64,000 nt of DNA from Candidatus Omnitrophota bacterium (GTDB taxonomy: Bacteria; Omnitrophota; Gorgyraeia; Zapsychrales; Aceulaceae). Within the stretch, counting starts at the first letter, position 1; every line of letters starts with the position of its first letter. Made by a program: the position numbers and the translations under genes. Shown here in pieces: positions 1,555-25,000 of the stretch. The stretch covers positions 104 through 64,103 of the forward strand of contig JAQUUP010000005.1 of NCBI GenBank assembly GCA_028693815.1, read 5' to 3'. The notes under the pieces were generated by a model. That model had not been told where the DNA came from and did not search any database. It worked only from the letters and a program-made list of their open reading frames with translations.

Positions 1555-2562
1555 ATGTACGATTACATTAATAAAATTCAATGCAAGCAAGACTTAACGT
1601 CTGAAGAGATGTCCGGCGTGATGCGACGCATTATGACAGGAAATGTTCCCCGGGAAGAATTGTTGGCTTTCTTGTTTGCCTTACGCGAAAAAGGCGCAGG
1701 GATTAATGAAATCACAGGCGCGGCAAGGATCATGCGTGAGTTTGCTATTTCGGTTGATACGGACAAGGATGTCGTTTTAGATACCTGCGGAACCGGTGGC
1801 GATCGTGCGGGTACCTTTAATATTTCCACCGTCGCGGCGTTTGTGGTGGCAGGCACAGGGTGCGTTGTGGCCAAACATGGCAATCGATCGGTTTCAAGTA
1901 AATGCGGTAGCGCGGATGTTCTAGAATATCTTGGAGTCGATATTAATATGAGAGTGGATCGTTTGGCCGAATGTCTTCAAAAGGTGGGCATCGCTTTTTT
2001 ATTCGCGCAAAATCTTCATCCAGCGATGCGTTATGCCGCTGCGGTGCGTAAGGAGCTCGGCGTTGAAACCATTTTTAATGTCTTGGGTCCATTAACCAAT
2101 CCGTCAAAAACTACGCATCAAATGATGGGTGTTTATAGCAAAGATTTAGTGGAACCGATGGCATATGTCTTAAAAAATTTAGGACTTAAAAAAGCATTGG
2201 TTGTTCATGGAGTTGATGGTCTTGATGAAATTACTACAACTGCCAAAACTTTTGCTAGCGAATTTAATGGAACAGAAGTTGTCAGCTATGTCATTTCTCC
2301 GGAAAAATATGGCATTCCATATGCTTCTCTAAAAGATGTTCTCGGTGGCGATCTTGATGTTAACGCCCAAATTCTTCAAGATGTCTTAGGTGGAAAAAAT
2401 GGTTTTAAACGAGATATTGTTGTCTTAAACGCAGCGCATGCGCTTTATGTTGGTGAAGTAGCTGATTGTGTGGAGCAAGGCATTGAACTTGCCAAGCATT
2501 CCATTGATTCAGGTAAAGCTTTAGAGAAGCTAGAGCTTTTAAAGCAGTACACTAATCAATAA
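1555..2562 (+). CDS. trpD: anthranilate phosphoribosyltransferase
   Basis: 335 aa with the GTGGD glycine-rich motif. Its position in the operon fits. Confidence 0.9.
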   Translation: MYDYINKIQCKQDLTSEEMSGVMRRIMTGNVPREELLAFLFALREKGAGINEITGAARIMREFAISVDTDKDVVLDTCGTGGDRAGTFNISTVAAFVVAGTGCVVAKHGNRSVSSKCGSADVLEYLGVDINMRVDRLAECLQKVGIAFLFAQNLHPAMRYAAAVRKELGVETIFNVLGPLTNPSKTTHQMMGVYSKDLVEPMAYVLKNLGLKKALVVHGVDGLDEITTTAKTFASEFNGTEVVSYVISPEKYGIPYASLKDVLGGDLDVNAQILQDVLGGKNGFKRDIVVLNAAHALYVGEVADCVEQGIELAKHSIDSGKALEKLELLKQYTNQ

Positions 2563-3344
2563 TGAATGATTTTCTTAGTAAAATTTTATTGCATAAAAAA
2601 GAATTGATCTTAAAAAAGAAAGATTTCTTTAATGCTCTTAAAAATAAATTAAAAGATAAAGAGCATTCATGTTATTCTCTTTTTGAAAAAGCGATTTCTT
2701 CTCCTGGAAAAATTAGTCTGATCGCTGAAATAAAAAAAGCTTCGCCATCGAGAGGCCTGATTTGCAAAGAATTTAGTGTTTCTGGTCTTGCAAGAAAATA
2801 TGTTAAAAGTGGCGCTGCGGCAATATCAGTTTTGACAGAAGAAAAATTCTTCTTAGGAAAACCGTCTTATGTTCGAGAGGTCTCTGATCATTTTGCCATT
2901 CCTGTTTTAGCCAAAGATTTCTTTATTGATGAATTGCAAGTTTATGAGGCGTTTGCTCAAGGGGCAAGCGCTATTCTTTTGATTGTAGCTATTCTAAAGG
3001 ATGAAGAGATTACGCATTTGATGAAAATCGCTCACAATCTCGATATGGATTCTCTTGTTGAAGTTCATGATGAAGAGGATCTTAAGCGGGCAGTTGATTT
3101 AGGCGCTAAAATTATAGGCGTTAATAATCGCAATCTTAAAACGTTTGAGGTTGATTTTAAGAATTGTGAAACACTTGTTCCAAGAATTCCAAAAGACAGA
3201 ATCATTGTTGCGGAAAGTGGCATTAAAACGCACGAGGAAATAGAAATATTAAAAGCCTTAAGGGTCGATGCCGTTTTGATTGGAGAAACATTTTTGCGAT
3301 CGGCTGATGTTGAGACAAAAATTAAGGAGATTATGAATGGGTAG
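2562..3344 (+). CDS. trpC: indole-3-glycerol phosphate synthase
   Basis: 260 aa with an EIKKASPSRG motif. Start and stop overlap the neighbouring genes, which suggests translational coupling. Confidence 0.85.
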   Translation: MNDFLSKILLHKKELILKKKDFFNALKNKLKDKEHSCYSLFEKAISSPGKISLIAEIKKASPSRGLICKEFSVSGLARKYVKSGAAAISVLTEEKFFLGKPSYVREVSDHFAIPVLAKDFFIDELQVYEAFAQGASAILLIVAILKDEEITHLMKIAHNLDMDSLVEVHDEEDLKRAVDLGAKIIGVNNRNLKTFEVDFKNCETLVPRIPKDRIIVAESGIKTHEEIEILKALRVDAVLIGETFLRSADVETKIKEIMNG

Positions 3345-3963
3345 GGTCAAGATTTGCGGCATAACAAATAAAAGAGATGCGCTTTGTGCCAGTTCGTTGG
3401 ACGCATGGGCATTAGGATTTATTTTTTATAAAAAAAGTTCACGTTATATCAGTCCTCAGGATGCTCAGAACATTATTGAGGCTTTGCCAAAGAATGTTCT
3501 GTCGGTTGGTGTCTTTGTTGATGCGCAAAAAGAAGAAATTGACGCTGTTATTAAAGATTGCAGGTTAAAAGTTGTCCAGTTTCATGGCAACGAAACACCT
3601 TTGTTTTGTTCTCAATTTAAAGCTGTTAAGACGATTAAGGCTATTCGCATTAAGAGCAAAGAGGATCTTGTAAAAGCTTTAAAATACAAAACAGATTATT
3701 TGCTTTTTGATACTTTTCAAAAAGATGCTTTTGGTGGCACAGGCAAAGTTTTTGACTGGGAGATTCTTAAGAGTTCAAAATTAAAGGGAAGAAAGATTGT
3801 TCTTTCTGGAGGCCTGAATCCAAAGAATATTGCTGGGGCAATTTCTTCGGTGAAAGCTTATGCGTTTGATGCTTCAAGCGGGGTGGAACGTAGGCCTGGC
3901 AAGAAGTGTCAGAGGTTGTTAAAGAAATTTTTTTCAGAAGTAAATATAAAAAATAAACAATAA
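3337..3963 (+). CDS. trpF: phosphoribosylanthranilate isomerase
   Basis: 208 aa with a KICGIT N-terminus typical of PRAI. It is the last gene of the 5' half of the trp operon. Confidence 0.85.
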   Translation: MGRVKICGITNKRDALCASSLDAWALGFIFYKKSSRYISPQDAQNIIEALPKNVLSVGVFVDAQKEEIDAVIKDCRLKVVQFHGNETPLFCSQFKAVKTIKAIRIKSKEDLVKALKYKTDYLLFDTFQKDAFGGTGKVFDWEILKSSKLKGRKIVLSGGLNPKNIAGAISSVKAYAFDASSGVERRPGKKCQRLLKKFFSEVNIKNKQ

Positions 3964-4045: not shown

Positions 4046-4714
4046 ATGAGCAAGATCGTTTTTGATATTGAGACTTTTGGACAGGATTTTGATTCTTTAG
4101 ATGAGAAATCGCAAGAATATTTCTTGAGGTTTGCAAAGACCGATCAAGAAGCTGAGGACGCAAAAAATAGCCTTTCGTTTTATCCTGTGACAGCTCAAAT
4201 TATTACAATTGGCATGTTGGATGTGGATACCAATAAGAGCTTTGTTTTTTTTCAAAATGACGGAAAAACTCAGAAGATTCAAGAGGATAATGTTGTTTAT
4301 ATTTCGGGAAGCGAAAAAGAAATCTTAGAGCATTTTTGGAAGCTGATGGACAAGGCTAATATTTTTATTACGTTTAATGGGCGCACGTTTGATTGTCCGT
4401 TTGTCATGATTCGTTCGGCTATCAACTCTGTGCGGGCGACAAAGGATTTGATGCCGTATCGCTATAAGCAAGGACCGCATGTTGATCTGATGGATCAGCT
4501 TACTTTTTATGATGCAATGCGAAGAAAGTTTAGCCTTGATATGTGGTGCAAGGCTTTTGGTATTCAAAGCCCAAAAGAAAAGGGGATAACTGGTCTTGAA
4601 GTTAAAGATTTCTTTAAAGATGGCCGCTATATGGATATTGCGCGTTATTGCGCCAGAGATCTTTTGGCGACCAAAGAACTATATATGTATTGGGATAAAT
4701 ACTTAAAGGTATAG
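4046..4714 (+). CDS. RNase H-like (DEDDy) 3'-5' exonuclease, PolB-exonuclease-related family protein
   Basis: The translation contains FDIET (an Exo I DxE motif) and YCARD (an Exo III YxxxD motif). An AGGAG RBS lies 8 nt upstream of the ATG at 4046. The ORF track opens at 3992, but that start lacks an RBS. Confidence 0.6.
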   Translation: MSKIVFDIETFGQDFDSLDEKSQEYFLRFAKTDQEAEDAKNSLSFYPVTAQIITIGMLDVDTNKSFVFFQNDGKTQKIQEDNVVYISGSEKEILEHFWKLMDKANIFITFNGRTFDCPFVMIRSAINSVRATKDLMPYRYKQGPHVDLMDQLTFYDAMRRKFSLDMWCKAFGIQSPKEKGITGLEVKDFFKDGRYMDIARYCARDLLATKELYMYWDKYLKV

Positions 4715-4764
4715 GTGTATTTAGATTTTTTCTTTTTCCGATCTTTCCTTGCCTACCTTGTTAT

Positions 4765-4786
4765 TTGCCAAACCATATGCTATATT
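4765..4786 (+). promoter_or_regulatory. putative promoter with extended -10 (TGcTATATT) and upstream TTGCCA
   Basis: The sequence ATGCTATATT occurs here and is nearly identical at 5113 and 15963. The -35/-10 spacing is non-canonical, so the extended -10 is the main signal. Confidence 0.35.
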
Positions 4787-4792
4787 TTAATT

Positions 4793-4992
4793 GAGCCGAT
4801 AAAGGTAAACTCGGGGAAACCCGAGGGCACAAAACCACAGACCTAAGTTGTCTGAAGCACTTTGCGCCCTTTGTCCGGAGTGGCAGAAGGGTAATCGAAC
4901 CGATTGGGTAGACGTGGATGGCAAGAGGGTGGCTGGGTTACCGAAGAGTAGTAGAATAGAGGAGAAATCCTAGCTTTTGTCGGCTCTTTTTT
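4793..4992 (+). ncRNA. candidate structured ncRNA or riboswitch-like element of unknown family
   Basis: A long-range closing helix pairs GAGCCGAUAAA (4793) with UUUGUCGGCUC (4976-4986) and ends in a U-tract. Internally there is a GAAA-tetraloop hairpin (CUCGGG-GAAA-CCCGAG), a further hairpin (CAGAC...GUCUG) and G/C-rich segments. No long ORF overlaps it. Confidence 0.45.
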
Positions 4993-4999
4993 CTTAAAA

Positions 5000-5037
5000 C
5001 TCGCAATTTCCTATAAATGGCGAGATTTTTTATTTTT
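5000..5037 (+). terminator. intrinsic terminator-like hairpin plus T-tract
   Basis: The sequence is CTCGCAATTT-cctat-AAATGGCGAG followed by ATTTTTTATTTTT. Confidence 0.5.
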
Positions 5038-5094
5038 AGAGCTAAAACTCTCTATAATTCAATAGGTATATCGCAATAATTTTATGCTCAAGAC

Positions 5095-5122
5095 TTGAAA
5101 TTCTCTTAAAATATGCTATATT
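5095..5122 (+). promoter_or_regulatory. putative sigma70 promoter of the giant1 gene (TTGAAA-16-TATATT with TGc extended -10)
   Basis: TTGAAA lies at 5095-5100 and TGCTATATT at 5114-5122. Confidence 0.45.
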
Positions 5123-5273
5123 TGATACGAAATTCAGTAAGCTATATAAGTTTTTATTCTATTTCATTTATTCTCGCCACGGAAAAAAGTGTAACCTGTT
5201 TTTTAAAAATACGGTATAAATTTTTTTCAACTTATGGCCCTTGCGGCAAGCTAATCTAATGAGGAGAAAACCC

Positions 5274-8200
5274 ATGATTGTGTATTTCGAAAAGTCTCAA
5301 AAAAGTCTTGCGTCTAAAATTGTATCTATTTTTATTGCTGTTTGTTTTCTTTTAAGCTCTATCGCGCCTAGCTACGCCCAGAGTCTGTCTGCGCTTCCTG
5401 TGCCAGGGACGATTGTTAGCCCAACACCCGGATTCTTTCCTGTGTTGGTCAGAGCTTTAGAGATCAACCCAGAGAATCCTTTGCAATTTGGCTTTATTGT
5501 AGACAACGGAGACACTGAGTTTCAAGGAGAAGACCTTACCGAAGAAGCCAAGAAGCTGATTCGCTATTTTCTTGCCTGTCTGACAACTCCTGAAGAAGAT
5601 ATGTGGGTCAACCTTTCTCCTTATGAAGAAAACCGTATTGTTTCTGATAATCTCGGCAAAACTCAAATGGGCCGCGACCTTTTAGCTCAAGACTATATTC
5701 TAAAGCAATTGACCGCTTCTCTGATTTATCCAGAGGACGAGCTTGGAAAGAAGTTTTGGGACAAGATCTACAAAACAGTTTATGAGAAGTTCGGTACCAC
5801 AGACATTCCTCTTAATACCTTTAATAAGGTCTGGATTGTCCCAAAGACAGCTAAAGTTTATGAGCATGATAATAGAGTTTTTGTGATTGATAGCAAGCTT
5901 GAAGTTATGATGGAAGAGGATTTCCTCGCGCTATCGCGCTCGCGTGAAATGTTAAAAGTGAAAAGTGAAGCGCACGATTCACGCTTCACGAGCGACGCTT
6001 CACAAAACAAATTGGCCTCAGATATTGTCCGCGAAATCCTTATTCCAGAGATTGAAAAAGAAGTCAATTCTGGCAAAAACTTTGCTAATCTTCGTCAGAT
6101 CTATAATGCTATGATCTTAGCGGCTTGGTACAAGAATAACCTTAAAGAGAGCCTTCTAGGCCAGATCTATGTGGATCAGGGAAAGACCAAGGGTATTGAG
6201 ATTAAAGATACAGATGCCACCCAAAAAATCTACGATCAATACATCGAATCTTTCAAAAAAGGTGTCTACGACTATATAAAGGTAGAGCATGATGCCCAAA
6301 CAGGCAAAAATATCCCAAGAAAATACTTTTCTGGTGGTGCCACGGCTTTTTCTTCAAGCGGCATTCCGTTAAGAGGTATGGTTCAGAATGTTGTGCCAGC
6401 GAGAAGCGATATGGATGCAAATGGTGTCCATGGCCGAAAAGGTGGCGATTTTACAAAAATTGATATTGGGCTTGGTGAGATTGGGGATGTGGAAGGTCAA
6501 TCCAGCTCCGGCATTGGAAAGCCATCAAGAAAAGATATTGCCGAAAGCGTTGAGAAAGGGATAACGTTTGTTCTCGAAGAAATAGATGCCGGAGGAGAAG
6601 TTGATTTATCTGAGACATTGCGTGGAATGGGATTTGCGACATCATCTGATGCGGAGAGCCTGAGATTTTTTTTGGAAAACCGCTGGACGGTTTCTTTGGG
6701 TTCCTGGGAGATGATGGATATTGATCAGACTACTGGTCACATGGTTGTTAATTTAGTAAAGGCTAGTTTTGCCAGCTCGGGTATTCTGACTGTTGATGAT
6801 TTTATGAATGATATCATTTCAATTATTGGATCTGCAATGTCAGATTTAGAAGGAGTGCATCGTATTTATATTTCTCCAAAAGGAAGCGGCTCTGGGTGGA
6901 ATTTCTTATCTGTTGAAGAATTTAAAAAGGTAATGGCAAAAGATTTTTCTGGGGTTGGAAATGTTTTAAGTTTGATGTCTAGCCTTGATGTTGGTTTGCT
7001 ATACGGAAAATCAATTTTTGTTCAATTATCAGAAGGTGAGAATAGATACTTAGCTTCTTATAATGGCAAGAAAATGCCTGGAGATGTAACAATCCAAGAA
7101 GCACTTAACAAAAAAGTTCAAGACCTTAACAATCTTCGCAAGTTGGGAGTTGAAGTGACTCAAACCCCACCCACCGCTGCAGCGATCTCATTGCTAAAAA
7201 CTCCTAGTGATGTTGTAGCATCTGCGGTTGAAGAATATGGCATGTTTCTGCAGAATACTTCAGGAAGATTTGAGGGAGACGATCAAAATACCCCATATCG
7301 TGATACTGATGAAAAAATTCGATGGCCTGAAGGTAAATGGCCTTTGTACATTTTCTTAGGGGATTTAACGGCCAATGGGTTGGGGCTTCGTCTTAATGAC
7401 GAAAAGACAGCTTATGTGGGTGTTCAGTTGGGATCTTATGGAACGTGGACAGATAATTTTCAGGATATTTTCATTCCAGTTGAGATTAAAGTCGTGTCTT
7501 CAGGGCTAAAAACTTATCACGATGTCGTAAGTTATTTAAGTGGGCAAGAAGGGGTAAACTTTGATAATATTTTCGGAAAATTTGGTGACGAGAAGATCCC
7601 TTATAAGGATTGGGGATCTTATAGTTCTCAGTTGCCATCGGAAATCTTTGCGATTGGAAGAGAGGGCTACGTGTTTCAAAAAGGTCCTGATGGGTATGAG
7701 CCAACAGATAGCCCAGGTGATTTCGATGAGCCGGCTGATCCCCTTAAGCAATTGCCAACGGCTACTAGAGCCTCTTCAGACATAAAGACTGATACTAAGC
7801 CTTTTGGAGGTGGAAAAATTTTATTTAGCCGTTTTGATCCTCGAGCAAAGGAAACGGTTCATGAGTTTGGGTTTCCTGGCCATGATCCTGATTGGACGTT
7901 TAAAGAGTCTGGAAACACTGTTTATGACTCTTCTGCTGAGATTATAGATAGAAGAAACGCATTATTAGGAGGAAAAAAATCCAGCTCAAATGTTACCAAT
8001 CGTTTGCAACTCGAGAACGCCATTAGACAATTTATCGTTACAGTTGTCAGAAAAGCATCAATTGATTCAATTAGTCAGATTCATATTGATAAAACACCAG
8101 TAGGAAATGGTGTGGAGCCTGGGGATTTTATATGGATTCAATCTCGTGTCGAGGAAGCTTATGGAGTTTCTGTTGGCGAGGAGTTTTCAATTTTACCAGT

Positions 8201-8900
8201 AAGAAATCTTGTTGATTTTGTTGAGAAAGAAAGCCCGATCCTTATTTCTCAAAGAATCATTGAAGATCCTTCTGTTCAGGTTCGCATGATCGATGCTAAA
8301 AGGCCACTTGATACAGACCAGATTGAAAAATTGGCATTTGGTGGACAGATTACAAGCCTTTATTCTCCTAAAGAGGAAAAGACATTGCATATTTTGGTTC
8401 AAGGAGTTGGAGGGACTCGTGGCGTTGTAAGAGCGTATGTAGAAAACGGGAATACTGTAGACTCTAATGTTACGCTGTATAATCCATCTGAAGACGCAAT
8501 TCTTCTTAGAGGTTTTAGAGTCTTTGAAGAGATTCGTTTTGCTTTAGTGAAAAATGGACTTGGTGATGCGATGATGGGAAAACATTATCCTAATAATCAA
8601 GTTTCGTCAAATACTGGTGGTATTAATCTTGATGCTGGGCTTTTGGATCTTCAAATTGAACGCGATGGAAACGGTATGCCTTTGCCATTTGCGCAACAAC
8701 CGCTTGGAATAATGAATATCCAAGGATTTTCATTTTATATTATGAGTGTCACAAATGTTCCGAGCATGCTTTTGATTTCAGGGTTGGTGCCTAATAATCA
8801 GGATGAGAAAACCGTCTCAGCTGAAAGCACGTTTGAACAAGCGTTGGTTGAAAAGAAGTTCCGATTTGTAGCAGATGACCCACGCAGAATATGTGCTTAA
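5274..8900 (+). CDS. giant secreted protein (1208 aa), paralog 1, with the shared N-terminal module
   Basis: A GAGGAG RBS precedes the ATG at 5274. The product has a signal peptide (MIVYFEKSQKSLASKIVSIFIAVCFLLSSIAPSYAQS). The ORF is uninterrupted. The N-terminal ~370 aa align clearly with the 16017 protein (LPVPG, ENPL, WVNLSPYEENRIV, GRDLLAQDYILKQ, FNKVWIVPK, NKLASDIVREI, NFAxLRQIYNA, PRKYFSGG). Confidence 0.85.
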   Translation: MIVYFEKSQKSLASKIVSIFIAVCFLLSSIAPSYAQSLSALPVPGTIVSPTPGFFPVLVRALEINPENPLQFGFIVDNGDTEFQGEDLTEEAKKLIRYFLACLTTPEEDMWVNLSPYEENRIVSDNLGKTQMGRDLLAQDYILKQLTASLIYPEDELGKKFWDKIYKTVYEKFGTTDIPLNTFNKVWIVPKTAKVYEHDNRVFVIDSKLEVMMEEDFLALSRSREMLKVKSEAHDSRFTSDASQNKLASDIVREILIPEIEKEVNSGKNFANLRQIYNAMILAAWYKNNLKESLLGQIYVDQGKTKGIEIKDTDATQKIYDQYIESFKKGVYDYIKVEHDAQTGKNIPRKYFSGGATAFSSSGIPLRGMVQNVVPARSDMDANGVHGRKGGDFTKIDIGLGEIGDVEGQSSSGIGKPSRKDIAESVEKGITFVLEEIDAGGEVDLSETLRGMGFATSSDAESLRFFLENRWTVSLGSWEMMDIDQTTGHMVVNLVKASFASSGILTVDDFMNDIISIIGSAMSDLEGVHRIYISPKGSGSGWNFLSVEEFKKVMAKDFSGVGNVLSLMSSLDVGLLYGKSIFVQLSEGENRYLASYNGKKMPGDVTIQEALNKKVQDLNNLRKLGVEVTQTPPTAAAISLLKTPSDVVASAVEEYGMFLQNTSGRFEGDDQNTPYRDTDEKIRWPEGKWPLYIFLGDLTANGLGLRLNDEKTAYVGVQLGSYGTWTDNFQDIFIPVEIKVVSSGLKTYHDVVSYLSGQEGVNFDNIFGKFGDEKIPYKDWGSYSSQLPSEIFAIGREGYVFQKGPDGYEPTDSPGDFDEPADPLKQLPTATRASSDIKTDTKPFGGGKILFSRFDPRAKETVHEFGFPGHDPDWTFKESGNTVYDSSAEIIDRRNALLGGKKSSSNVTNRLQLENAIRQFIVTVVRKASIDSISQIHIDKTPVGNGVEPGDFIWIQSRVEEAYGVSVGEEFSILPVRNLVDFVEKESPILISQRIIEDPSVQVRMIDAKRPLDTDQIEKLAFGGQITSLYSPKEEKTLHILVQGVGGTRGVVRAYVENGNTVDSNVTLYNPSEDAILLRGFRVFEEIRFALVKNGLGDAMMGKHYPNNQVSSNTGGINLDAGLLDLQIERDGNGMPLPFAQQPLGIMNIQGFSFYIMSVTNVPSMLLISGLVPNNQDEKTVSAESTFEQALVEKKFRFVADDPRRICA

Positions 8901-9540: not shown

Positions 9541-10215
9541 ATGACAACATTACGTAAAAATCCTTTAGTTAAAGGGAAGATTTATCATATTTTTAATCGA
9601 AGCATTGCTAAGTTTGTTATTTTTAATGATGAAAAGGAATTTGCGCGCATGCTTGAAACAGTAAAATATTATCAGTCAAAAGACTGCGGGGACAGTTTGT
9701 CACATTTTATAAAAATGAAAGAGTCCGAAGCTGTTAATCGTCAGAATAAAATAAAAATTAAGTTGCTTTCTGATAAGCTTGTCGATATTATAGCTTTTTG
9801 TTTAATGCCAACCCATGTCCATTTTGTTTTAAAGCAGCTTAAAGATGGTGGTATTTCAATTTTTATGAGCAATATCCAAAATAGCTATACTCGATTCTTT
9901 AATCTTAGACATCAGCGAAAAGGTCCACTCTGGGAAGGAAGATTTAAGAGTGTTTTAGTTGAAGATGATGAGCAGCTGCTTCATTTAACGCGATATGTTC
10001 ATCTTAATCCGGTTACAGCCGGCTTGGTCGAAAAGCCAAAGGATTGGTTTGCGTCCTCTTATAAGCAATATTTAAAACAAGGCGTGGCAGATTTCTCAAT
10101 GTGCAACTTTTCTGATATTTTGGATATTGATTCGGGCAGCTATCAAGAATTTGTTAATGACCAAATTTCCTATCAAAGGGATTTGGCAGGAATTAAACAT
10201 TTAGTTTTTGATTAG
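9541..10215 (+). CDS. IS200/IS605-type Y1 (HUH) tyrosine transposase, REP-associated (RAYT-like)
   Basis: 224 aa. It has the HxH motif (MPTHVHFV) and the catalytic-Tyr region (LWEGRF...LLHLTRYVHLNPV) typical of TnpA_REP/IS200 transposases. Family-1 REPs flank it. Confidence 0.8.
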   Translation: MTTLRKNPLVKGKIYHIFNRSIAKFVIFNDEKEFARMLETVKYYQSKDCGDSLSHFIKMKESEAVNRQNKIKIKLLSDKLVDIIAFCLMPTHVHFVLKQLKDGGISIFMSNIQNSYTRFFNLRHQRKGPLWEGRFKSVLVEDDEQLLHLTRYVHLNPVTAGLVEKPKDWFASSYKQYLKQGVADFSMCNFSDILDIDSGSYQEFVNDQISYQRDLAGIKHLVFD

Positions 10216-12266: not shown

Positions 12267-13445
12267 ATGATACAACCTAATAAAAGCGGACATTTTGAGG
12301 AGTTTGGAGGACGCTTTGTTCCTGAGACGTTAATGTCGTTAGTTGTGGATTTAGAAAAGACATTGAATGCTCTTCGAAAAGATAAGAAATTCAAGAAAGA
12401 ATTTGATTTTTATCTTACGAATTATGCAGGCCGGCCAACCAATTTATATTTTGCTTCTCGCTTAAGCGAAAAACTAAAACCATTAAAAGTTTATCTGAAG
12501 CGTGAAGATCTTCTTCATACGGGCGCTCATAAAATAAACAACACTCTTGGGCAGATCTTAGTCGCACGGTCTATGAAAAAAACGCGCATTATTGCCGAGA
12601 CCGGAGCCGGTCAGCATGGAGTGGCTACGGCGACAGCTGCGGCCCTTTTTGGTTTGAAGTGTGATGTGTATATGGGCGCAAAAGATGTTGAGCGTCAGGC
12701 CTTAAACGTTTTTCGAATGAAACTTTTAGGAGCAAATGTTATTCCAGTAACAAGCGGAACGCAAACTCTTAAAGATGCGATGAATGAAGCTATTCGTGAT
12801 TGGGTGACGAATGTTGAAAATACTTTTTATATTATCGGTTCTGTGGCAGGGCCTCATCCGTATCCTACGATGGTGCGTGAATTTCAGAAAATTATTGGTG
12901 TTGAGGCACGTAAGCAATTTTTGGCTAAAGAGAAAAAACTTCCTGATTATTTGCTTGCTTGTGTTGGCGGTGGCTCTAATGCGATGGGACTTTTTTATCC
13001 ATTCTTTGATGATCAAAAAGTGAAGATGATTGGTGTTGAGGCAGCAGGTTTGGGGCTAAATACTGATAAGCATTCTGCTGCTGTTATCAAAGGGGAGATC
13101 GGGGTTTTGCATGGAAGTAAAAGCAAGCTTTTGCAAACGCCTGACGGACAAATTCGAGAAGTTCACTCGATTGCCGCTGGCCTTGATTATCCTGGCGTTG
13201 GCCCTGAGCATGCTTATTATAAGAAAATAGGACGTGCTGAGTATGTTGGTGTTGATGATAAGCAAGCAATTAAGGGATTGAAATTACTTTGTGAAACAGA
13301 GGGTATTATTCCAGCGCTTGAAAGCGCACATGCCATTGGATATTTAGAAAAATTAGCCAAGAAGGTCAAACGTAAGTCAAGTGTGGTTGTTTGTTTGTCT
13401 GGGCGTGGGGATAAGGACGTACACGAGCTCAAGGGAATTATTTGA
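12267..13445 (+). CDS. trpB: tryptophan synthase beta chain
   Basis: 392 aa with the [12 protein letters not shown]-lysine motif and a GGGSNAMG motif. Confidence 0.9.
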
Positions 13446-13728: not shown

Positions 13729-14523
13729 ATGAATCGTATTGATCAAAAATTTAAAAGTTTAAGTAAGCAGAAGAAAAAAGCGTTTATTGCTTTTATTACG
13801 GCAGGAGATCCAAACTTAAAAACAACCGAAGAGTTGGTGTTGGCTTTTGAAAAATCTGGAGTTGATATCGTTGAGCTTGGGGTGCCGTTTTCTGATCCTT
13901 TGGCAGATGGGCCAACCATTCAAGAAGCTTCTTATCGGGCGCTTAAAAATAAGGTCAGCATTATAAAAATTCTTGATTCGGTTAAAAGGATTCGAAAAGT
14001 TTCTGAGATTCCAATTTGTTTAATGACGTATTATAATCCTGTATTTCATTTTGGGGATACAAAATTTGTCGCGCAGGCAAAAGCGGCAGGTGTTGATGGT
14101 GTTATTATTCCTGATCTTCCGCCGGAGGAGGCCTCTGAATTGATTCAAGAGGCGCGAAAAAAGGATTTTTCAACAATCTTCTTTTTATCACCAACAACAA
14201 AAAAAGAGCGTATCAGCATTATCGAAAAAGCTTCGAGTGGGTTTATTTATTATGTTTCGATCGCAGGGGTGACTGGCGCACGCAAGGCTTTGCCTAAGAA
14301 TTTAAAAGAAAATTTAAAGAAAATAAAGCGTTCAATCAAAAAGCCACTATGCGTTGGGTTTGGCATTTCTAACGCACAACAAGCAAAAGAAATTTCAAAG
14401 TGCTGTGATGGTGTTATTGTCGGAAGCGCGATCATCAAAGAGATTATAAAGAATAAGGGCAAAAAGAATTTAGTTTCAAATGTTACCCGTTTTGTGAGTA
14501 GCCTTTCTGCAGCTATTAAATAG
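13729..14523 (+). CDS. trpA: tryptophan synthase alpha chain
   Basis: 264 aa with an IVELGVPFSDPLADGPTIQ motif. Confidence 0.9.
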   Translation: MNRIDQKFKSLSKQKKKAFIAFITAGDPNLKTTEELVLAFEKSGVDIVELGVPFSDPLADGPTIQEASYRALKNKVSIIKILDSVKRIRKVSEIPICLMTYYNPVFHFGDTKFVAQAKAAGVDGVIIPDLPPEEASELIQEARKKDFSTIFFLSPTTKKERISIIEKASSGFIYYVSIAGVTGARKALPKNLKENLKKIKRSIKKPLCVGFGISNAQQAKEISKCCDGVIVGSAIIKEIIKNKGKKNLVSNVTRFVSSLSAAIK

Positions 14524-16016: not shown

Positions 16017-19000
16017 ATGGTTCAGAAAATTAAATCAAAAAGACTAAGATCCTTTTTTAGGGGCGCGTCTATTTTCGTGCTTGTGTGCTTTGTGCAGACT
16101 TGCATTGTGCCTTTTGGCATTCCGCAGGCTCATGCGCAAGGGCTTTTGAGTCTTCCTGTGCCTGGCGCTAGTGTGTCTTTGACGCCTGCATTTTCTCCTG
16201 CTACTTTGATTGGTCTAAAAATTCATCCTGAAAATCCATTAAGAGTTGATTTTGTGGTAGATAGCGGAGATTTTGGGCTTTCCAATCAAGCATTTAAGAG
16301 CGAGACCGAAAAATTGATTAAGTATTTCTTGGCAGCACTCACAATTCCAGAAAAAGATCTCTGGGTCAATCTTTCTCCCTATGAGGAAAATCGAATCGTT
16401 GCAGACAATTTTGCTCAGACAGAAATGGGCAGAGACTTGCTTGCCCAGGATTATATCTTAAAGCAGATTACGGCGTCATTGATTTATCCAGACGACGAAC
16501 TTGGAAAAGAGTTTTGGAAACGCATCTATCAAAAGGCTTATGAAGAGTATGGAACAGCGAATATCCCTGTTGATGCGTTTAATAAGGTATGGATTGTGCC
16601 CAAAAAGGCTGTTGTTTATGAAAATGGGGATAGGGTTTTTGTGGCGGAATCGTCTCTATCCGTTATGGTGGAGCAAGACTATTTAGCCATGACAAAGCAT
16701 AGTCAAGGTAGCTCCGACGTTTCAGTCGGAGTCCCGACATCCGACGTTGGTTATAAATCAGGTAAGGAAGTCGGATCGTCGGGAAAGGTGATGCTGGAAA
16801 CGGACTATGTTGCTTTGCAAGCAAAGCAACAAGTATCTAGTGAAGAGCATCTAGTATATGGTGATAATCAGCAACCAAATACCATATCCCAAATACCAAA
16901 TACGGATAATAAATTAGCTTCCGACATTGTCCGCGAAATCATCATTCCTGCCCTTGAAAAGGAAGTCAATCAGGGCAAAAACTTTGCCCAGTTACGTCAA
17001 ATCTATAATGCCGTTATTTTAGCCGCATGGTTTAAAACAAATCTAAAAAATGCTTTGCTCAACGAAGTTTATTCTGATCAATCAAAAGTTTCAGGTGTTG
17101 ACGTTGAAGACAAAAAGATTACGGATAAAATTTATCAAAGATATCTAGAGGCTTTCAAAAAAGGTGTATGTAATTTTGTCAAAGTCGAATACGACGAGAA
17201 TGAGCATAAAAATGTTCCGAGAAAATATTTCTCAGGGGGAACGGACTTGGCTCTTTCTTCTAGCGGAATTTTAGAGAAGACGAATCAATCGTCTTCGGTC
17301 ATTCCAAGCGGGAAGTGTGCTCTTGTTGAGCAGAATTTTAGTGTTTTTTCTTCTACTGTTGTTGAGAAAATTAAGATTAAAGAGGAAGAGCCGTTTTCTG
17401 ATATTTTAAAGGATGTATCTGATAATGAGCTTTTTATTTTAAAAGATATTCTTCGTAATCTTAATGTTCATTTTGCAGAAAGTGAATCAGATTTGATTAA
17501 CGTTGAAAAGTTTTCTTTTAAAAATATTATTCTTAAGCTTAAGAAAATTCTGGATAAACATGGTGATGAAAAGAATAAACTAGATCTCCAAGATCCTAGA
17601 TCTGAAGCATTGATTGGAAGCATTAAGCTTCAGGATGATGGCATTATTTCTATTGTGCACCCGATGTTTACAACTAGTGGTGTTCATGTTGAAAATTATC
17701 CTATTGTTGTTTTTGCACAAAATATAGCCGCTGCAAATTATGAGCAAGTACGGATTCGTCATTGGATCAATTTTTTTAGAGAGCACGATAAGAATTTAGA
17801 TATAGCTATTAAAGATGGAAGATTTGGTACAATAATAAAATTTTGGATTGAAGGCAGCGATGCTCTTGGTTTAAAGAGGCCAAAAGTTGTTGCCAAGCGA
17901 AAAGAAGCATATCGAGCAAAGGTATTAGAATTTAAACAGATAGGGGCCTCTGGCAGAAATGGTTCGGGATCAAAGAATTTTAATGCTTTTCAGAGTAATG
18001 GAAAGCGGGATATCGATTTTGAGTACGATGATGAATTTGTTGTTAACTCTATTTTAGACATTTCTCCACAAGAACTTGGCAAAGTTTCTCGTGAACAATT
18101 GATTCAAAAGCTTGCTTCTTTAATGGCTATGTTAGCGGGAAAAGGTAGTCAGGAGATGGAGCTTTCAACATCAAAGGACAAAGAGCCTTTGTGGCTAGAT
18201 TTTCGAACGGAATCAGCTATTGAGAGGAATTTTTCATCATTTGAACTTTTTCTTGAAGAAGTTTTTGGGCAGGAAGGAGACAAGGAAAAGATTTCTCCTT
18301 ACAAAGCTTACTTTTTTTCAAAAGGACATAGAAAAAATGGTTCTAATGGTAAAAGTTTCTTTACTCCTCGAAAAATTGTTTTAACAATTGATAGAAAGCT
18401 CTTAAAGAATTTTATTATGAAATATAAAGAAAAACATGCTGGAGAAGGTAACGAGTCTGACCGCGTCTATATAGATGAAGATAATTTGAGAAAATATTAT
18501 ATTCTTTCGCTCTGGCTTGATCGAATGATTGAGCTTTTTGAGAAAGAAAGAGTTGTTGAGCGTTATGGTCGTATTGTTGTTGATAAAGAAAAGTTTGTTG
18601 GCGGTCGAGCTTATTCGGAAGACTTTAAATCTTTTGTTGAATTAAAGTCTGAAAAGAATATTTTTATTAATCTGGATGGAACAATTGCTGTTTATGATAG
18701 AGAAAGCGATCAGAAAGGTTATCGTTTTTATGATGATGCCGATAAGCTTTATGATGAGCTTAAAACTTTAAAGGACAATGGATTTAATATTATTCTTTGG
18801 AGTTCAAATTATGAGTGGTTTATTCGTCATAATTTTGTTCGAGAGTCTAGACATAAAAAATGGATAGACCTCTTTAGTTTTATAATCACTCAGGAAAATT
18901 ATCGTGCACCAACAGATGTGGAGCTATCTGAAACTTATTTATCAGAAGAGTTTGCGGATGCTAAAAAACTTTATGGAATTTTTGACTCTTTTAAGGATGT

Positions 19001-22000
19001 CTCTATGTTCGGTCCTTTAAACCGTTTAATCTTAAGGTCAGAACCAATTTATTCGGAGCAGCGAACAGCTATAGAATCAAGGGTTGGTGATAGCACTTGT
19101 GTGATTGGTTATCGTGGAGAGGGAATTGATGGTATGGCCCAAAGAATCTTAAGTGAGGTTTTAACTGAGGCAGAAAAGACTCAGATAGAAAAAGCAAAAA
19201 AAGAGAAATTAGAAAAAATTGAGAAGGAAAAGGCTGAGCGAGAGCGAGTGGAGAAGGCGAGATTAGAGAAAATTGTGAAAGAAAAGGAGCAGCAAGCGAA
19301 GATCGCTGCAGAAAAGAAAGCTCAACGAGATGCAAAAAAGAAAGAAAGAGAAGAAAAAGAGCTAAAAATCAGAGCTTTTTCAAAGGATTATATAAAAGAG
19401 GCAGCAGCTGCAGAAATAATTTTAGAGAACATACTTCATAAGTACCCTCAGATGATGTTTGCGATTAGACTTTTTTCAAATGTTTATGAAAAAGCAGTAG
19501 GATTAGAGGAAAGTGATGACAATAATCAAATTGTAAGCGTGATTTCTGCTTTTTTTGCGATGCAAATAAAACGTCTTGCTTATAGGTCAGGAAAAACTTT
19601 AGATGAATATTTAGAGATCATATCTGGCAATGTCATTGACTCAGAAGGAAAAGTGACGCAACGAGAGGAAGTTGAAGAAATCAAGATTCTTTTGAGAGAT
19701 ATTTTAATTCATGAACTAATTAATGATGAGACGGATGAGTTAATGATTGAAAAGAAAGAAAAGGAATCAATGAGTGGTGACTTGATAATTAAAAAGATGC
19801 TAGACAATGGGATTCCGAAAGCTTTGGGAACTTCAGCGATAAATATTGAAGGATTATTAAGCGCATCTCAGGGAAGCGGTCAGGAAAAGAAAGTATCGCT
19901 GAACAAACAAGCAGCTCAAGCTGTCTCTTCGCTTCTGGATCAAATTTTTGATGATAAGTTTGATTTAGATGGCATAGAAAATCAGGAAAAACTTAAGAAG
20001 GAGATGGACCGCATTGGCTTGTTGATTTTAAGAGATTCGCAGCGAGATATATCTTCTAAAATAAAACATTGGGCGAAAGAGTTTCAAGGGTTTTCACAGG
20101 AAACAATTTTAAGTCGGTGGGCGAAATATAAAGAATCACAATTAAAGAATAAAAAAGATCTTTTGAAGTTTCATGTAACTCTTGCTGATGCGCAAAAAGG
20201 GTATTTGACGATTGAAGTAGTGCTTAAGCTTATCGAGCAGATGCAAGATATTTATAAAAAACTTGATGCAAAAGAAAGAAAAGAATTTTCTTTTCAAGAA
20301 TGGATTGATCTTTGGGATATCAAAATTGATTCTTTTGTTGATAATCTTTTTGATTGTTATCGTTTGGCTGATGGGACTTTTTATTTTTCTAAATTGCCAA
20401 ATTCGCTGCATCCATATTTTGTTAAAACTGGTAATAATTTATATGAATTAAAAGAAGCTTCTCATGGTAATCAGGTTAATTATTTTGACATTTGGTCCAA
20501 GTGGGTTTTTCCGGTTTTTCATAATTTTGAATCTGTTCCTGAAGCAAAAGTCCCTGGCATGCTCAATGCTGATGTGACGTTTTTCATGAATGATCCGAAA
20601 AGATTGGACAGTACTTTTTATACTTATAATGTGTTTCGCATGTTTGAGAAATTTCTAGCGAATATTTCAGTTGATAAGTTTTTTATTTTTAATGTTGATC
20701 ATGGAAAAGAAAAGCTTCCAGCACAAGCAACTGGTATTGTGCGTTATAAGAAAGATGGGACGAGGGATTTGGTGGGTCAGACAAAGGATTTTAAAGATAA
20801 AATAATAAAACTGTTATCAGAGAAGAGATTTTTACAAAACGCGGATTTAAATGGCTTACTGCTTGCTCTTTATGTTCTAGCTGACGAGACGGATGTTGAT
20901 CTTTTGCAATGGTATGGACAATATAAAATTGTCGAAGATCTCTTTGAGGGGGACAGGAGTGGAAATGGCCTTAGTTCTGAGAATAATATCGCACGTGCAC
21001 GTCATTTTGATCGCGGTGTACGCACGTTAGCATTTTATATCTTAGATAAGCTTGCTGGTGGTTTTGAAAAGTTTACAGAAGATTCCTTTGTTGACATAAA
21101 TAAGATTCAGAGCTCGGATGTTGTTATTTTTAAGGAGATAATTCTTCCGTCCGAATATTATAATCAGACAAAGTTCCCTGTTCTTGAGATGGTGGAGGGT
21201 GGATATATAACTTCTGGTGTAGCTGCTCAGATGATACAAATAGAATCTATGTTTTCTCTTGAGCCGCGTGCGTTTAATATTCTTAAGTTAATTCACGGCT
21301 TAGGGCAATCGCTTATTATGGAACCATCTCTTGATCGTAGCGTTTATGTTTTGGGTGATCAAATTCGGGCTGCAAGCAAAGGGTTTCATCCTGCTCATTT
21401 TGCTGAAGATGCACACCGTTACGTGGATTCTGACGGAGTTGTTTTTACACTAGAAGAGGTTGCGCAGAAGAAAAAAACAAAAGAAGAATTCGTAGCAACT
21501 AATACTGATTCAATGGATCTGATCGATTTATCATTAGATGAATATGCTAGGGTTTTTGAGAATTTAACAAGCAAGATTGATTTATCTGTTTTGATTAATT
21601 TGACATTAGAGAAGTATGCTGAGACGCTTACTATGGCTGTAAATTTCTCAGTGCAAAGATATTTGCCTTTGATCAAGAAAGTTATTGAAATACGTAATGA
21701 ATATTTTGAACGATATCAACAATATCCTGCGATTTCTATTGTCAGTAATCGTGATCAAGTTCCAAATGATGCTTTTATTGAGCCAAAAGAAATGAACAAT
21801 AGGGATATCGCAAATAAAATTTTAGGTACAGGACTTCCTGACATTATCCCTCTTAATGGTCAATTGGTCGAAAATTTAGCCGTAGAGCATATTGAGAGCT
21901 TGTTATCTTCTGGGGATGACACACAAGTTTTAAAGCCAGTTGATTCGAATGATAATCGACTTTTTCCTGCGCTGGCCGCAGATCAACTACTCCAAATTTT

Positions 22001-25000
22001 TGGGATCATCAATGCTTCAAGCAAATCAATGGCAATGATTAATCATATTGCTCGTCAGTTTCAGACGAAAGAAGATCTTGAAGATCTTTTGGCTTGTGTT
22101 TTGGGTAATTTTTCTTCCAAGCTTTCTTATCGATCTTCTTTGACCGCTAATTTTATTGTACAAAAAGGTTTTGCCACAAATGAGCAGATGTCAATGGCCT
22201 TTGGGCCGGCCTATCGTTATGACTCCTTTAATCCGTATTATTCTTTAGACAATATTCATTTCTTTGATATTCCAGAATACGGAGTTCCTCAGAATATTAA
22301 TTTTTCATATTATTTTGATTCAAATGAAAAGGCAATTCTTTATCAAATAGCGGAGAATAAGGGTGGGCATGAATTTGTCCGCTATGAATATTCTGGATCT
22401 AAGAGGATTAGTAAAGATTTTGTCCGAGATAGAAAAGAAGATCTTAATTCTGATATTGCAGAGGTTTTAATTGCTTTGGATCGTTTGGCAAATAAAACTC
22501 TTGATTTTGCAGATAAGAAATATGGGGATTTTAAATTAGATGTAGAAAAAGAATTTGGAGCAAAGATTGATGATAGCAATAAATATTTGTTTCTTGAAAA
22601 ATTGCTTGATGCTGTGCTTGATGCTTTGCAAGAAACAGAAATATCTAATGATGGTGAGTTTCTTGACATGCTTTTAAAGGTAGAAAGGGGTGTTGTTTTA
22701 GCAAAAACATTAATTGAGACACGAAATAGTATGGACGAGCTATATCCGTTTGCTTTAGAAAATCGGGTCGAGAATTTTGAATATATTGAGAAGCGTATTG
22801 AAGAATCTAAAGAAGATCAAAAAATAAATATGTATATTGAGCAGAGATTTGCTGGTGCGATTTCAGAGAATTTTCGCGCTTTGATTGAGGGGCTTCTCCA
22901 GTCTAGTCCAAGGATTAAGGTGGATCTTTATATTTTGAGTGATGATCCAAATTATGATTTTGTTCCAAGGAATGGAAATCAAATTGTCGATCCTTATCAA
23001 GGATTTACGACTACGGTTGTTCGCAGTTTAGATGAGCTTGAAGTAATCAAAAAACAAGATTGTCTTCATGTTGGATTGAATTATGATGATTTTGAAAATC
23101 CTCAAGACGAAAATATTTTTGTTGTGGATCTTGCGCATAATGTTCAAGGGGAACTTGATTTTTCACTGAAACGCCAAGAATTATCAACGAGACTCAATCT
23201 TGATCTAGATGATCCTTCTGGATCTATTCCGATCAATCCAGCTTTATTGAAACGAAAAAAGATTCGTAACGAAATTTGGTCTTTAGATGATCTCCTGAGA
23301 CGCAGAGGCGCATTTTTAGATAAAATTTTAACTTCTAAGCAGTTGGAAGTATTGCAATCGAGCGTAGATGCGTTGCCGGACGGCAAAAGCGTTTTTAATG
23401 TTAACATGTCTGTTTTGTCATATATGTCACCAAGTAATCTAGAAAAGTTTCTAGAAGAGATGAGTATCTTAAGATCAGCTATTCTTGATGATGATTTGAA
23501 TGATATTTTTATTAGCGCTGGAGAGGAGCACGGTAAGCAGATTGTTCTTCTTTGGGAGGATTCAGGGTACGTAGCCGAGAGGCTTGATCTTAAGAAGTTA
23601 ACAGATGACATTGGGATTACAGTTATTGACCAAGCTGGAGAGGTTTATCCCGGATTAAAAGAAAAAAGAATTCCTGTAACAATTATTCGCTGTCATGAGT
23701 TGAGTGAAAAACAAAGAAAAGAACTCTTTTCTGAATTGGCTGGAACGGCGAAAATAGTAGAAAAAGATTTGGGTAATGGAAAAGGAAAGAGTAGATTCTT
23801 TGTTGATTTCCCGATTTATATTTCTGGTATGTCTTCGAAATTTTTTAATTTATTATCCACAGGGTCGATGTTTATTCACGATAATTTTGTGATCAAGACT
23901 GGTGAAATGAAATCTTATCTTCAAAATATTCTTAGAAGGGCTTTTGCTTTTGAATCGAAGGATCGGAATAATGGCCCAGCAATTCATAAAGCAGAAATCC
24001 TTGTGCCTGATATGATCATGGGAGGCCAGGCAAAGAATTCTAGGATAGTGATTCAGAAAGGATCTCATAACAACGAAATAAAGACTGCTGCCACATTTGG
24101 GCCAATGTTTGCTTTGGGGAAATATTCTGATCTTGTTGGTAGAACACTGCATTCGCAATCGATTGCTGAAACTTTTTCTAATTTTTCAGCTGTTGAAGAT
24201 TTGCTCTGCGGGATTGCTGGAAGGATTATTGAAGCAGAGGATGTTCCTAATAAATCATCTGTTTTTATTAAATCAAAAGCAGATTCTGATCAATTGGGCA
24301 GTGCAGCACAACCCAAAGAACAGCCTTCGTCTTCAACTAAGAAATTTTTTCCCCCGAAAGAACATTCTCTTTATGCAGGGTTTATGTGGTTGCAACAAAA
24401 TAGTCCGGAATATTTTAATCTTTTTATCAAAAAAGCAAAGAATCCTAATATGGTTATTAAGGATAAAAGTTTTATTGCTGCTGTTACGGATTGCGGGTTG
24501 TGGAACGGCAAGGATGGAGAAGCCGGAGATATTTTGCCAGAAGCAAGGCAATTTGTATTGGACAGCATTAAGGCGTCCGAAGATGAGGCAGGTAACTTTG
24601 ATGAAGGGGCCGATGTATCAAGTAGTGCCATTAGCGATCATTTTAAGGTTGATGATCAAGGACATATAAAATATGTTGATGAAAATTTTAAAGAAAATCC
24701 TACTATCAAACTTGATTTTGAAATGATTGGTTTTCGTCATATGATTACGTTTGCGAATGAACAAGGAATTCTGCAAGGGGGGCCTAGTAACGGTGAAGAT
24801 AATAAGCTAAGTGAAGAAGGAAAAAGGCAGGCCACAGAGGATTTAGCTCCAGCACTTTATGCAATGCTTAAAGAAAAAATTGAGCAAGGAAAGAAAATAG
24901 TGATTGCTCTTAGTGAGGCAGACAGGACGATTGAAAGTATTCAGCCCTTTATTAATTTTGTTAAGGAAACACTCGGCATTGATTTAGAGGTTAAGGTCTA

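Follow-up and report, generated by a model that had tools for sequence, protein, structure and literature searches.

The window analysed here is a 64,000-nucleotide (nt) stretch of contig JAQUUP010000005.1 from a Candidatus Omnitrophota bacterium (GenBank assembly GCA_028693815.1), and the element under study is an RNA module that lies in it upstream of a gene for a large membrane-anchored protein. The module consists of a promoter, a riboswitch aptamer, a linker, a strand that is complementary to the start of the predicted transcript and is followed by a U-tract (terminator T1), and a second intrinsic terminator (T2), after which the gene's own promoter follows (Table 1). An initial annotation had described it as a stand-alone structured RNA with its own promoter and two terminators, possibly a riboswitch for a second messenger. 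The features listed there, namely the promoter-like sites, the long helix, a hairpin with a GAAA loop, the segment GGUUACCGA and the second hairpin, are all present on direct reading.

Table 1. Features of the riboswitch module and of the gene that follows it, in window coordinates.
Feature	Positions	Strand	Details
Promoter of the riboswitch unit	4758-4786	+	-35 TTGTTA 4758-4763; 17-nt spacer; extended -10 TGcTATATT 4778-4786
Predicted transcription start	~G4793		-10 ends 6 nt upstream
5' strand (S5)	4793-4803 plus G20 (G4804)	+	GAGCCGAUAAA; C4797/G4798 are the canonical P1 5' nucleotides
Junction adenines	A4801-A4803		A17-A19 of Vc2 (Rfam alignments)
P2 hairpin	4805-4830	+	GAAA loop 4816-4819
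GAAA-tetraloop hairpin	4810-4825		Loop 4816-4819
P3	4833-4939	+	Tetraloop receptor CCUAAG 4842-4847
Distal insertion in P3	4853-4919	+	69 nt; three-way junction
Hairpins of the insertion	4867-4875/4882-4892; 4898-4901/4907-4910		P3a; P3b
Ligand contacts (alignment to models)	G4804; A4831; C4941; A4802		G20; A47; C92; A18
Inter-helix pair	C4828 and G4932		C44-G83
Internal segment	4936-4944		GGUUACCGA
Canonical P1 3' nucleotides	C4942 and G4943
Linker	4947-4975	+	Variable; small hairpin AGGA-GAAA-UCCU 4960-4971; parts C92 from the distal strand
Possible extension of the long helix	U4975 and C4974		Could pair with G20 and G21
Distal strand	4976-4986	+	UUUGUCGGCUC; complementary to 4793-4803
U6 tract	4987-4992		Directly 3' of the distal strand; with the S5 helix forms T1
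Second intrinsic terminator (T2)	5000-5037	+	Hairpin CUCGCAAUUU/AAAUGGCGAG 5000-5024; U-run 5026-5037
Gene's own promoter	5095-5122	+	TTGAAA 5095-5100; 16 nt; TGcTATATT 5114-5122
Hairpin in the 5' untranslated region	5171-5184	+	Stem UUCU/GGAA; loop CGCCAC; motif CGCCACGG at 5175-5182
Downstream gene	5274-8900	+	1208 residues; N-terminal membrane helix; ribosome-binding site GAGGAG 5261-5266

The aptamer and the layout of the locus

The whole window was scanned against Rfam at gathering scores, and the ranges 4600-5400 and 4990-5300 were also scanned at permissive E-values. The sole match in the window is the class I cyclic di-GMP (c-di-GMP, GEMM-I) riboswitch family (c-di-GMP-I, RF01051), at positions 4794-4945 of the forward strand, with a score of 65.4 bits against a gathering score of 35 and an E-value of 1.5e-10. 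The covariance scan proposed by the initial annotation is thereby in agreement with its guess of a second-messenger riboswitch. The alignment spans model positions 1-87 of 87, with the 69-nt insertion at the tip of P3 left unaligned. Neither the scan of the window nor the permissive scans returned a match to transfer-messenger RNA (tmRNA), RNase P RNA, signal recognition particle (SRP) RNA or 6S RNA, to which no likeness had been seen before either.

Position 20 of the aptamer is a G and is invariant across the 15 aligned modules described below. An A at this position reportedly defines the GEMM-Ib riboswitches for cyclic GMP-AMP (cGAMP) in studies on Geobacter, and specificity for cGAMP was rejected on account of the G found here. 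The residue equivalent to position 20 guides selectivity (PMC9262584). The roles of G20, A47, C92 and A18 and of the C44-G83 pair are taken from published work (PMC4744006; bioRxiv 10.1101/871194), in which A18 and G20 hydrogen-bond the ligand (bioRxiv 10.1101/871194). The c-di-GMP-I-GGC variant (RF03167), in which G replaces A47 in the consensus GCGAA, is likewise rejected: position 47 is A in the window and in the related locus L005 (GCACAAAA and GCGCAAAA), and the top match of the window within the clan is RF01051. Three related loci (L005 3606-3761, L006 3415-3570 and L037 3557-3703) score marginally higher on RF03167 than on RF01051 and pass the gathering score of the former (61 bits versus 59) despite carrying A47. 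Long P3 insertions may lead the RF03167 model to over-call ordinary c-di-GMP-I members; judged by their residues, these three and the window element are ordinary G20/A47/C92 aptamers. The element is a class I c-di-GMP riboswitch that shows the model match, the ligand-contact residues and the P2 and P3 features of the class and is predicted to bind c-di-GMP, and its aptamer is a new member of this known class.

According to the P1 annotation of the RF03167 model, the canonical P1 helix of the window comprises just G4798-C4942 and C4797-G4943, possibly together with C4796-G4946. The minimum free energy (MFE) fold of 4788-5045 includes the long helix and both hairpins, with a z-score of -2.1 (2 of 200 shuffled sequences fold as well). 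In this fold GAGCCGAUAAA pairs with UUUGUCGGCUC and is followed by U6. The 11-base-pair (bp) helix with its U-tract is therefore as first described, except that the distal strand lies at 4976-4986 and not at 4977-4987. Similarly, the extended -10 element TGcTATATT is present, but it ends 6 nt before G4793 where a start about 7 nt past it had been given. A promoter scan on its own performs at chance level (three found, 2.9 expected), so that the promoters are called here from their conserved positions at related loci. The word TGCTATATT occurs in the window at these two promoter sites only.

The window also encodes a GAF-HD-GYP phosphodiesterase (40890-42332) and a PAS-GGDEF cyclase (47892-48893), both of which had been noticed before, and their presence indicates that the organism makes and degrades c-di-GMP. 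A gene for a dCache-HAMP histidine kinase is found at 35613-37520.

Recurrence and conservation of the module in Omnitrophota

We fetched 80 genomic loci that encode the N-terminal domain of the downstream protein (locus numbers carry the prefix L) and screened them by pattern, with Rfam and with our own covariance model R1. The long module is found in nine of the 80 (L002-L006, L017, L023, L037 and L067) and a compact GEMM-I aptamer in one, L053; the RF01051 family was matched in ten related loci at 57-68 bits. Model R1 finds no second copy in the window and none in the other 70 paralogue loci. The window holds two paralogues of the gene family (5274-8900 and 16017-25655), the second of which has no module. 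The aptamer of L053 (3818-3965) lacks the P3 insertion, has a 7-bp proximal P1 and is located 55 nt before a paralogue gene, without a second promoter.

Metagenome contigs were scanned with the conserved word GCCGAYAAAGGYAAAC. The 120 matches comprise 11 modules with a long P1 and four compact GEMM-I aptamers, the others being chance matches in coding DNA. Nine of the 11 modules are located upstream of a gene for a glycoside hydrolase family 1 (GH1) beta-glucosidase, the named relatives of which are all from Omnitrophota. When loci were sampled through the GH1 protein alone, the module was found in five of six, between a gene for a peptidoglycan-binding protein and GH1. The whole layout was found again in more than 25 independent loci.

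A feature table of the module parts was compiled for 21 modules. All parts are conserved, in the shared order promoter, (G)AGCCGAUAAAGGY, aptamer with a large insertion, GGCUGGGUURCCGAAG, linker, CUUU(G/A)UCGGCU, hairpin with U-run, promoter and gene; the large insertion sits in P3 or, at some loci, in P2. The -10 element ends 6-8 nt upstream of the first paired nucleotide in every module, and it takes the form of a strict extended -10 located 16-18 nt before GCCGA in 14 of the 21, with TATACT at the same spot in the others. The linker ranges from about 9 nt (L005 and L006) to about 90 nt (L114) and usually forms a hairpin. In all ten loci of the window's gene family the distal strand is followed by a T-tract (6-9 T among 10 nt, at a background T frequency of 0.34). 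The second hairpin of the window, with its T-tract, is as initially described and has a counterpart with a U-run in 18 of the 21 modules, the ones without it being L005, L006 and L114. A strict extended -10 follows the module in 18 of 21 loci as well, and the gene's own promoter, already recognized in the initial annotation, has a conserved sequence at a conserved position in L002-L006 and L067. The module is invariably upstream of, and co-oriented with, a gene of one of five kinds (the paralogue family, GH1, two small Cys-rich proteins and an HtpX-like protease), from which it is separated in most loci by T2 and a second promoter. It constitutes a phylum-wide subclass with a distinctive expression platform.

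The GH1 loci L129, L149, L165, L177, L180, L183, L199 and L202-L207 contain a hairpin AAUCCCAACA...UGUUGGGAUUUUUU before GH1, both arms of which are conserved in sequence. Its 3' arm doubles as the -35 (TTGGGA) of a promoter of the extended -10 type, 18 nt away, and its U-run falls within the promoter spacer. L204 keeps the T2 hairpin though it lacks an aptamer. The start codon of several GH1 genes is 5-10 nt past TATAAT, which implies that the mRNAs are leaderless.

Folding and covariation analysis of the homologous regions, as the initial annotation had proposed, gives an RNAalifold consensus. In the 15-sequence alignment 98% of the cells of the consensus structure are paired and 17 pairs are changed on both sides. 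None of 500 shuffles matches the observed measures, and sliding the partners lowers pairing to 30-50%. The covariation is mostly in P2 (five of six pairs compensatory) and P3 (ten of 15 pairs compensatory). For the P3 insertion, RNAalifold on six relatives gives 31 pairs, and compensatory changes are seen in eight of these. In the 15 sequences 96% of the long helix is paired, and the helix is present in the consensus. G20 is opposite a C in 12 of these sequences and a U in the remaining three, and G21 is also covered in the GH1 type. In L053 the 5' strand differs (UUCUCGAAAA), and its proximal partner (CGA-AA-GAAG) and its distal partner (UUUUCGAGAA) are both changed to match. These matched changes are independent support, at the sequence level, for the pairing of the 5' strand.

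The long helix and its predicted role in switching

Judged by their pairing, the long helix and the ligand-bound junction exclude each other as alternative structures: the distal strand pairs with the 5' strand of P1, the junction adenines A17-A19 and G20, and so cannot coexist with bound ligand. Constrained folding to position 4992 gives -70.4 kcal/mol for the free fold and -56.4 kcal/mol for a mimic of the bound state. The same 5' nucleotides have C93 and G94 as canonical partners, both of which are still conserved. In the Cd1 and pilM riboswitches the capture of pocket residues by pairing abolishes binding, and pilM is an ON switch in which aptamer and terminator are mutually exclusive (PMC9262584). 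The long helix, which the initial annotation took to close the element, is real, but its pairing speaks more for a terminator that forms without ligand than for a helix that simply closes the functional fold. The distal strand is always followed by a U-tract in the window's gene family, so that the ligand-free structure would be an intrinsic terminator, T1. A local 5' arm for T1 is absent from the window, in which only a weak hairpin of -8 kcal/mol that uses part of the U-tract is found.

We infer the polarity of the switch, the efficiencies of the terminators and the effect on the gene as follows. Transcription would start around G4793, the first nucleotide of the 5' strand, and the aptamer would sense c-di-GMP through G4804 (G20), A4831 (A47) and C4941 (C92), with the linker allowing time to capture the ligand until the distal strand emerges. 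Without c-di-GMP, a helix of 11-14 bp would surround the whole aptamer, destroy the binding pocket and, followed by U6, act as T1, releasing a closed RNA of about 200 nt that ends near 4992. With c-di-GMP bound, the 5' strand would be locked in the aptamer, T1 would be blocked and RNA polymerase would continue. The ligand-independent T2 would then halt most of these ligand-licensed transcripts, while those that pass it would add c-di-GMP-dependent transcription of the membrane-anchored protein gene to that from its own promoter. Such an ON switch in cis at T1 with read-through into the gene is the reading that we favour, although we regard it as an even call.

Several observations weigh against this ON switch. 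T2 resembles an efficient ligand-independent terminator and is followed by a near-consensus promoter, so little controlled transcription may reach the gene. T2 is unchanged in the bound-mimic folds of 12 modules; antitermination at T2 by the freed distal strand was considered and rejected, since no complementarity exists and every bound-mimic fold leaves T2 intact. In the GH1 context no U-tract follows the distal strand (3-4 T among 10 nt) and several GH1 mRNAs would be leaderless, so the T1 logic cannot be general for the subclass. It is unusual for a terminator stem to surround a domain of 170 nt, the core of the helix does not vary in sequence, which leaves covariation only in the two outer pairs (GC, AU and UG) and in L053, and in the bound mimic the distal strand still makes a weak local hairpin before the remaining Us. 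Finally, L053 has its distal strand within a local terminator of 15 bp that exists alongside the aptamer. Such a Cd1-like design is predicted to be OFF, the opposite of the T1 design of the window, and the polarity may therefore differ between paralogues.

The alternative closest to the initial annotation is that promoter, aptamer, T1 and T2 form an autonomous gene for a c-di-GMP-binding small RNA (sRNA), the transcripts of which never reach the downstream gene; we consider this possible but less probable than the ON switch. Two forms would here be selected by c-di-GMP: one that stops at T1, closed and about 200 nt in length, and one that carries the ligand, is open and extends for about 245 nt to T2, leaving its distal strand exposed. 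The RNA would serve as a sink or sensor of c-di-GMP or act in trans, as in the merRNA of Bdellovibrio, which provides a precedent (PMC3627812). The transcript ends match the closing helix, given the constant 6-8 nt between the -10 and the first paired nucleotide; T2 is widespread and ligand-independent in the folds; and a near-consensus gene promoter follows in nearly all loci, in the GH1 context 11 nt past the U-run of T2 and with mRNAs that would be leaderless. The GH1-type modules, having no U-tract at T1, have T2 as their only 3' end. What was claimed initially holds for the promoter, the two terminators and the separate gene promoter, which are also conserved, but a stand-alone character is not established, as the module always precedes a co-oriented gene. 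An autonomous sRNA gene needs no such placement, which is kept in all five contexts. L005, L006 and L114 are devoid of T2, and in L005 and L006 read-through to the gene is possible. Together with the strict co-orientation, these three loci make a role in cis at least as likely as a stand-alone RNA. No conserved seed for pairing in trans was found, and the closed form ending at T1 has an occluded pocket and cannot be a sponge. That Omnitrophota have conserved autonomous sRNA genes built on a c-di-GMP-I aptamer, in which the messenger selects two non-coding isoforms instead of switching an mRNA, is a tentative proposal; equally tentative, and bound to it, is the proposal that these isoforms would be a c-di-GMP sink or a trans-acting or promoter-proximal regulator of the adjacent, separately transcribed gene.

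An OFF switch, in which the long helix is an extended P1 of the bound fold, c-di-GMP speeds its closure and promotes termination at T1, and the polymerase escapes to T2 or beyond without ligand, is unlikely. P1 formation in Vc2 is coupled to ligand binding (PMC4744006; bioRxiv 10.1101/871194), a proximal P1 of just 2-3 bp could need an extra closing helix, and L053, from the same gene family, is predicted to be of the OFF type. Yet the distal strand pairs with A17-A19 and faces G20 with C or U in every aligned sequence, although A18 and G20 hydrogen-bond the ligand, and conservation of C93 and G94 would be unnecessary were the long helix the functional P1. Still less probable, and very unlikely, is promoter interference or coupling, by which the distance travelled by the polymerase (to T1 or T2) would alter occlusion or re-initiation at the gene's promoter without any read-through mRNA. 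This is a purely inferential idea. The tandem layout of promoter, terminator and promoter is conserved and the GH1-type T2 carries promoter elements in its 3' arm and U-run, but the distance from T2 to the gene's promoter within the window's gene family is anywhere between 0 and about 400 nt, which speaks against a distance-dependent mechanism, and L204 retains its T2 hairpin without any aptamer. For the favoured ON switch, the Bc1 riboswitch is relevant, for which it has been discussed that two serial terminators keep the fold-change but reduce the level of expression (PMC11218506).

The downstream gene and comparison with known riboswitches

The 1208-residue protein has an identical counterpart, annotated as hypothetical, in a Candidatus Omnitrophica metagenome-assembled genome, and has no match in Pfam, NCBIfam, PDB sequences or PDB folds. 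Its N-terminal ~355 residues share 50-60% identity with more than 4800 Omnitrophota proteins. The family, with more than 4800 members, is confined to Omnitrophota. Its N-terminal ~355 residues consist of the membrane helix and a fold without a relative in the PDB (AlphaFold2 pLDDT 70), and at the C-terminus a motif of ~70 residues is conserved (GGIxLNPxLLDLQIKRDGxGVPLP...). The middle of the family is hypervariable and in paralogues holds cytosolic enzymes (UGPase, PGK, GPI, enolase and PGM) or REC, HEAT or GGDEF domains.

The hairpin in the 5' untranslated region (5' UTR) of the downstream gene is found in eight of ten riboswitch-bearing loci and in ten of 70 other paralogue loci, and has no match in Rfam. 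Its family form has a UUCC/GGAA stem that covaries to CUCC/GGAG and a YGCCAC loop, ~45-60 nt past the gene's own -10. A kissing interaction between the P3a loop (GAGUGG) and the loop of this leader hairpin (GCCAC) was rejected, since L023, L037 and L067 lack the complement and the GH1 mRNAs would have no leader.

The tryptophan operon of the window is split, with trpD, trpC and trpF (1555-3963) about 8 kb from trpB (12267-13445) and trpA (13729-14523). The stretch in between carries the PolB-like exonuclease gene, the riboswitch, the large gene, an IS200-like Y1 transposase gene (9541-10215) and genes for an M20 peptidase and a DUF3108 protein. The split suggests an insertion.

Our literature searches found no paper that links Omnitrophota to riboswitch biology and no description of a phylum-wide arrangement in which a terminator built from the P1 5' strand and pocket nucleotides encloses the aptamer and is followed by a further terminator and a promoter. 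The present work gives the region a firm annotation. While identification of the aptamer is routine, the conserved, insulated architecture is worth an experimental question. The identification links c-di-GMP signalling in an uncultured and probably host-dependent phylum to a membrane-anchored protein family and to a conserved GH1 glycosidase locus, and the architecture offers a recurring, testable design in which a terminator stem around the whole aptamer is followed by a second terminator and a fresh promoter. This design also bears on a puzzle posed by Bc1 and merRNA, the apparent insulation between certain perfectly conserved c-di-GMP aptamers and the gene that follows them. Should the module act as a stand-alone RNA, it would be a widespread natural case of a riboswitch aptamer serving as a ligand-gated small RNA.

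With the RF01051 class, the prototype of which is Vc2 of Vibrio cholerae, the window element shares the full-length match to the covariance model, the docking of a GAAA tetraloop of P2 into a CCUAAG-type receptor in P3, and G20, A47, C92, A18 and the C44-G83 pair. It departs from the class in the 69-nt P3 extension with a three-way junction, in a proximal P1 of no more than 2-3 bp, in an anti-aptamer strand located distally, 9-90 nt past C92, and in a tightly spaced promoter of its own that is combined with two terminators and a downstream promoter. The genes that typically follow GEMM-I riboswitches relate to the environment, the membrane and motility, and the position of the window element before a large protein gene with an N-terminal transmembrane helix fits this class.

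The nearest analogues are pilM for the mutually exclusive ON logic, Bc1 for the dual terminators and merRNA for the discrete riboswitch RNA. In pilM, a GEMM-Ib riboswitch of Geobacter metallireducens, the terminator also sequesters pocket nucleotides and ligand prevents termination (PMC9262584). However, pilM senses cGAMP, with A at position 20 where the window element has G, and its terminator captures the 3' part of the aptamer, with the equivalent of C92, whereas the terminator of the window captures the 5' strand with A17-G20 and has the whole aptamer as its loop. The merRNA of Bdellovibrio bacteriovorus, a bacterium with a host-dependent lifestyle, likewise has a c-di-GMP-I aptamer in a discrete non-coding unit and has been proposed to be a store or sponge of c-di-GMP (PMC3627812); the corresponding transcript of the window is predicted only. 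The window module has a promoter and terminators of its own, as expected of such a unit. It differs in that merRNA is 445 nt long, has no conserved downstream open reading frame and was defined by its massive expression, while here a co-oriented gene always follows. In Bc1 of Bacillus thuringiensis, two serial rho-independent terminators also follow a GEMM-I aptamer, and c-di-GMP unfolds T1 while T2 stays intact and masks the response (PMC11218506). Bc1 has its terminators in a long 5' UTR, as local hairpins with 28 bp between them, whereas T1 of the window is a long-range helix and a separate gene promoter follows T2.

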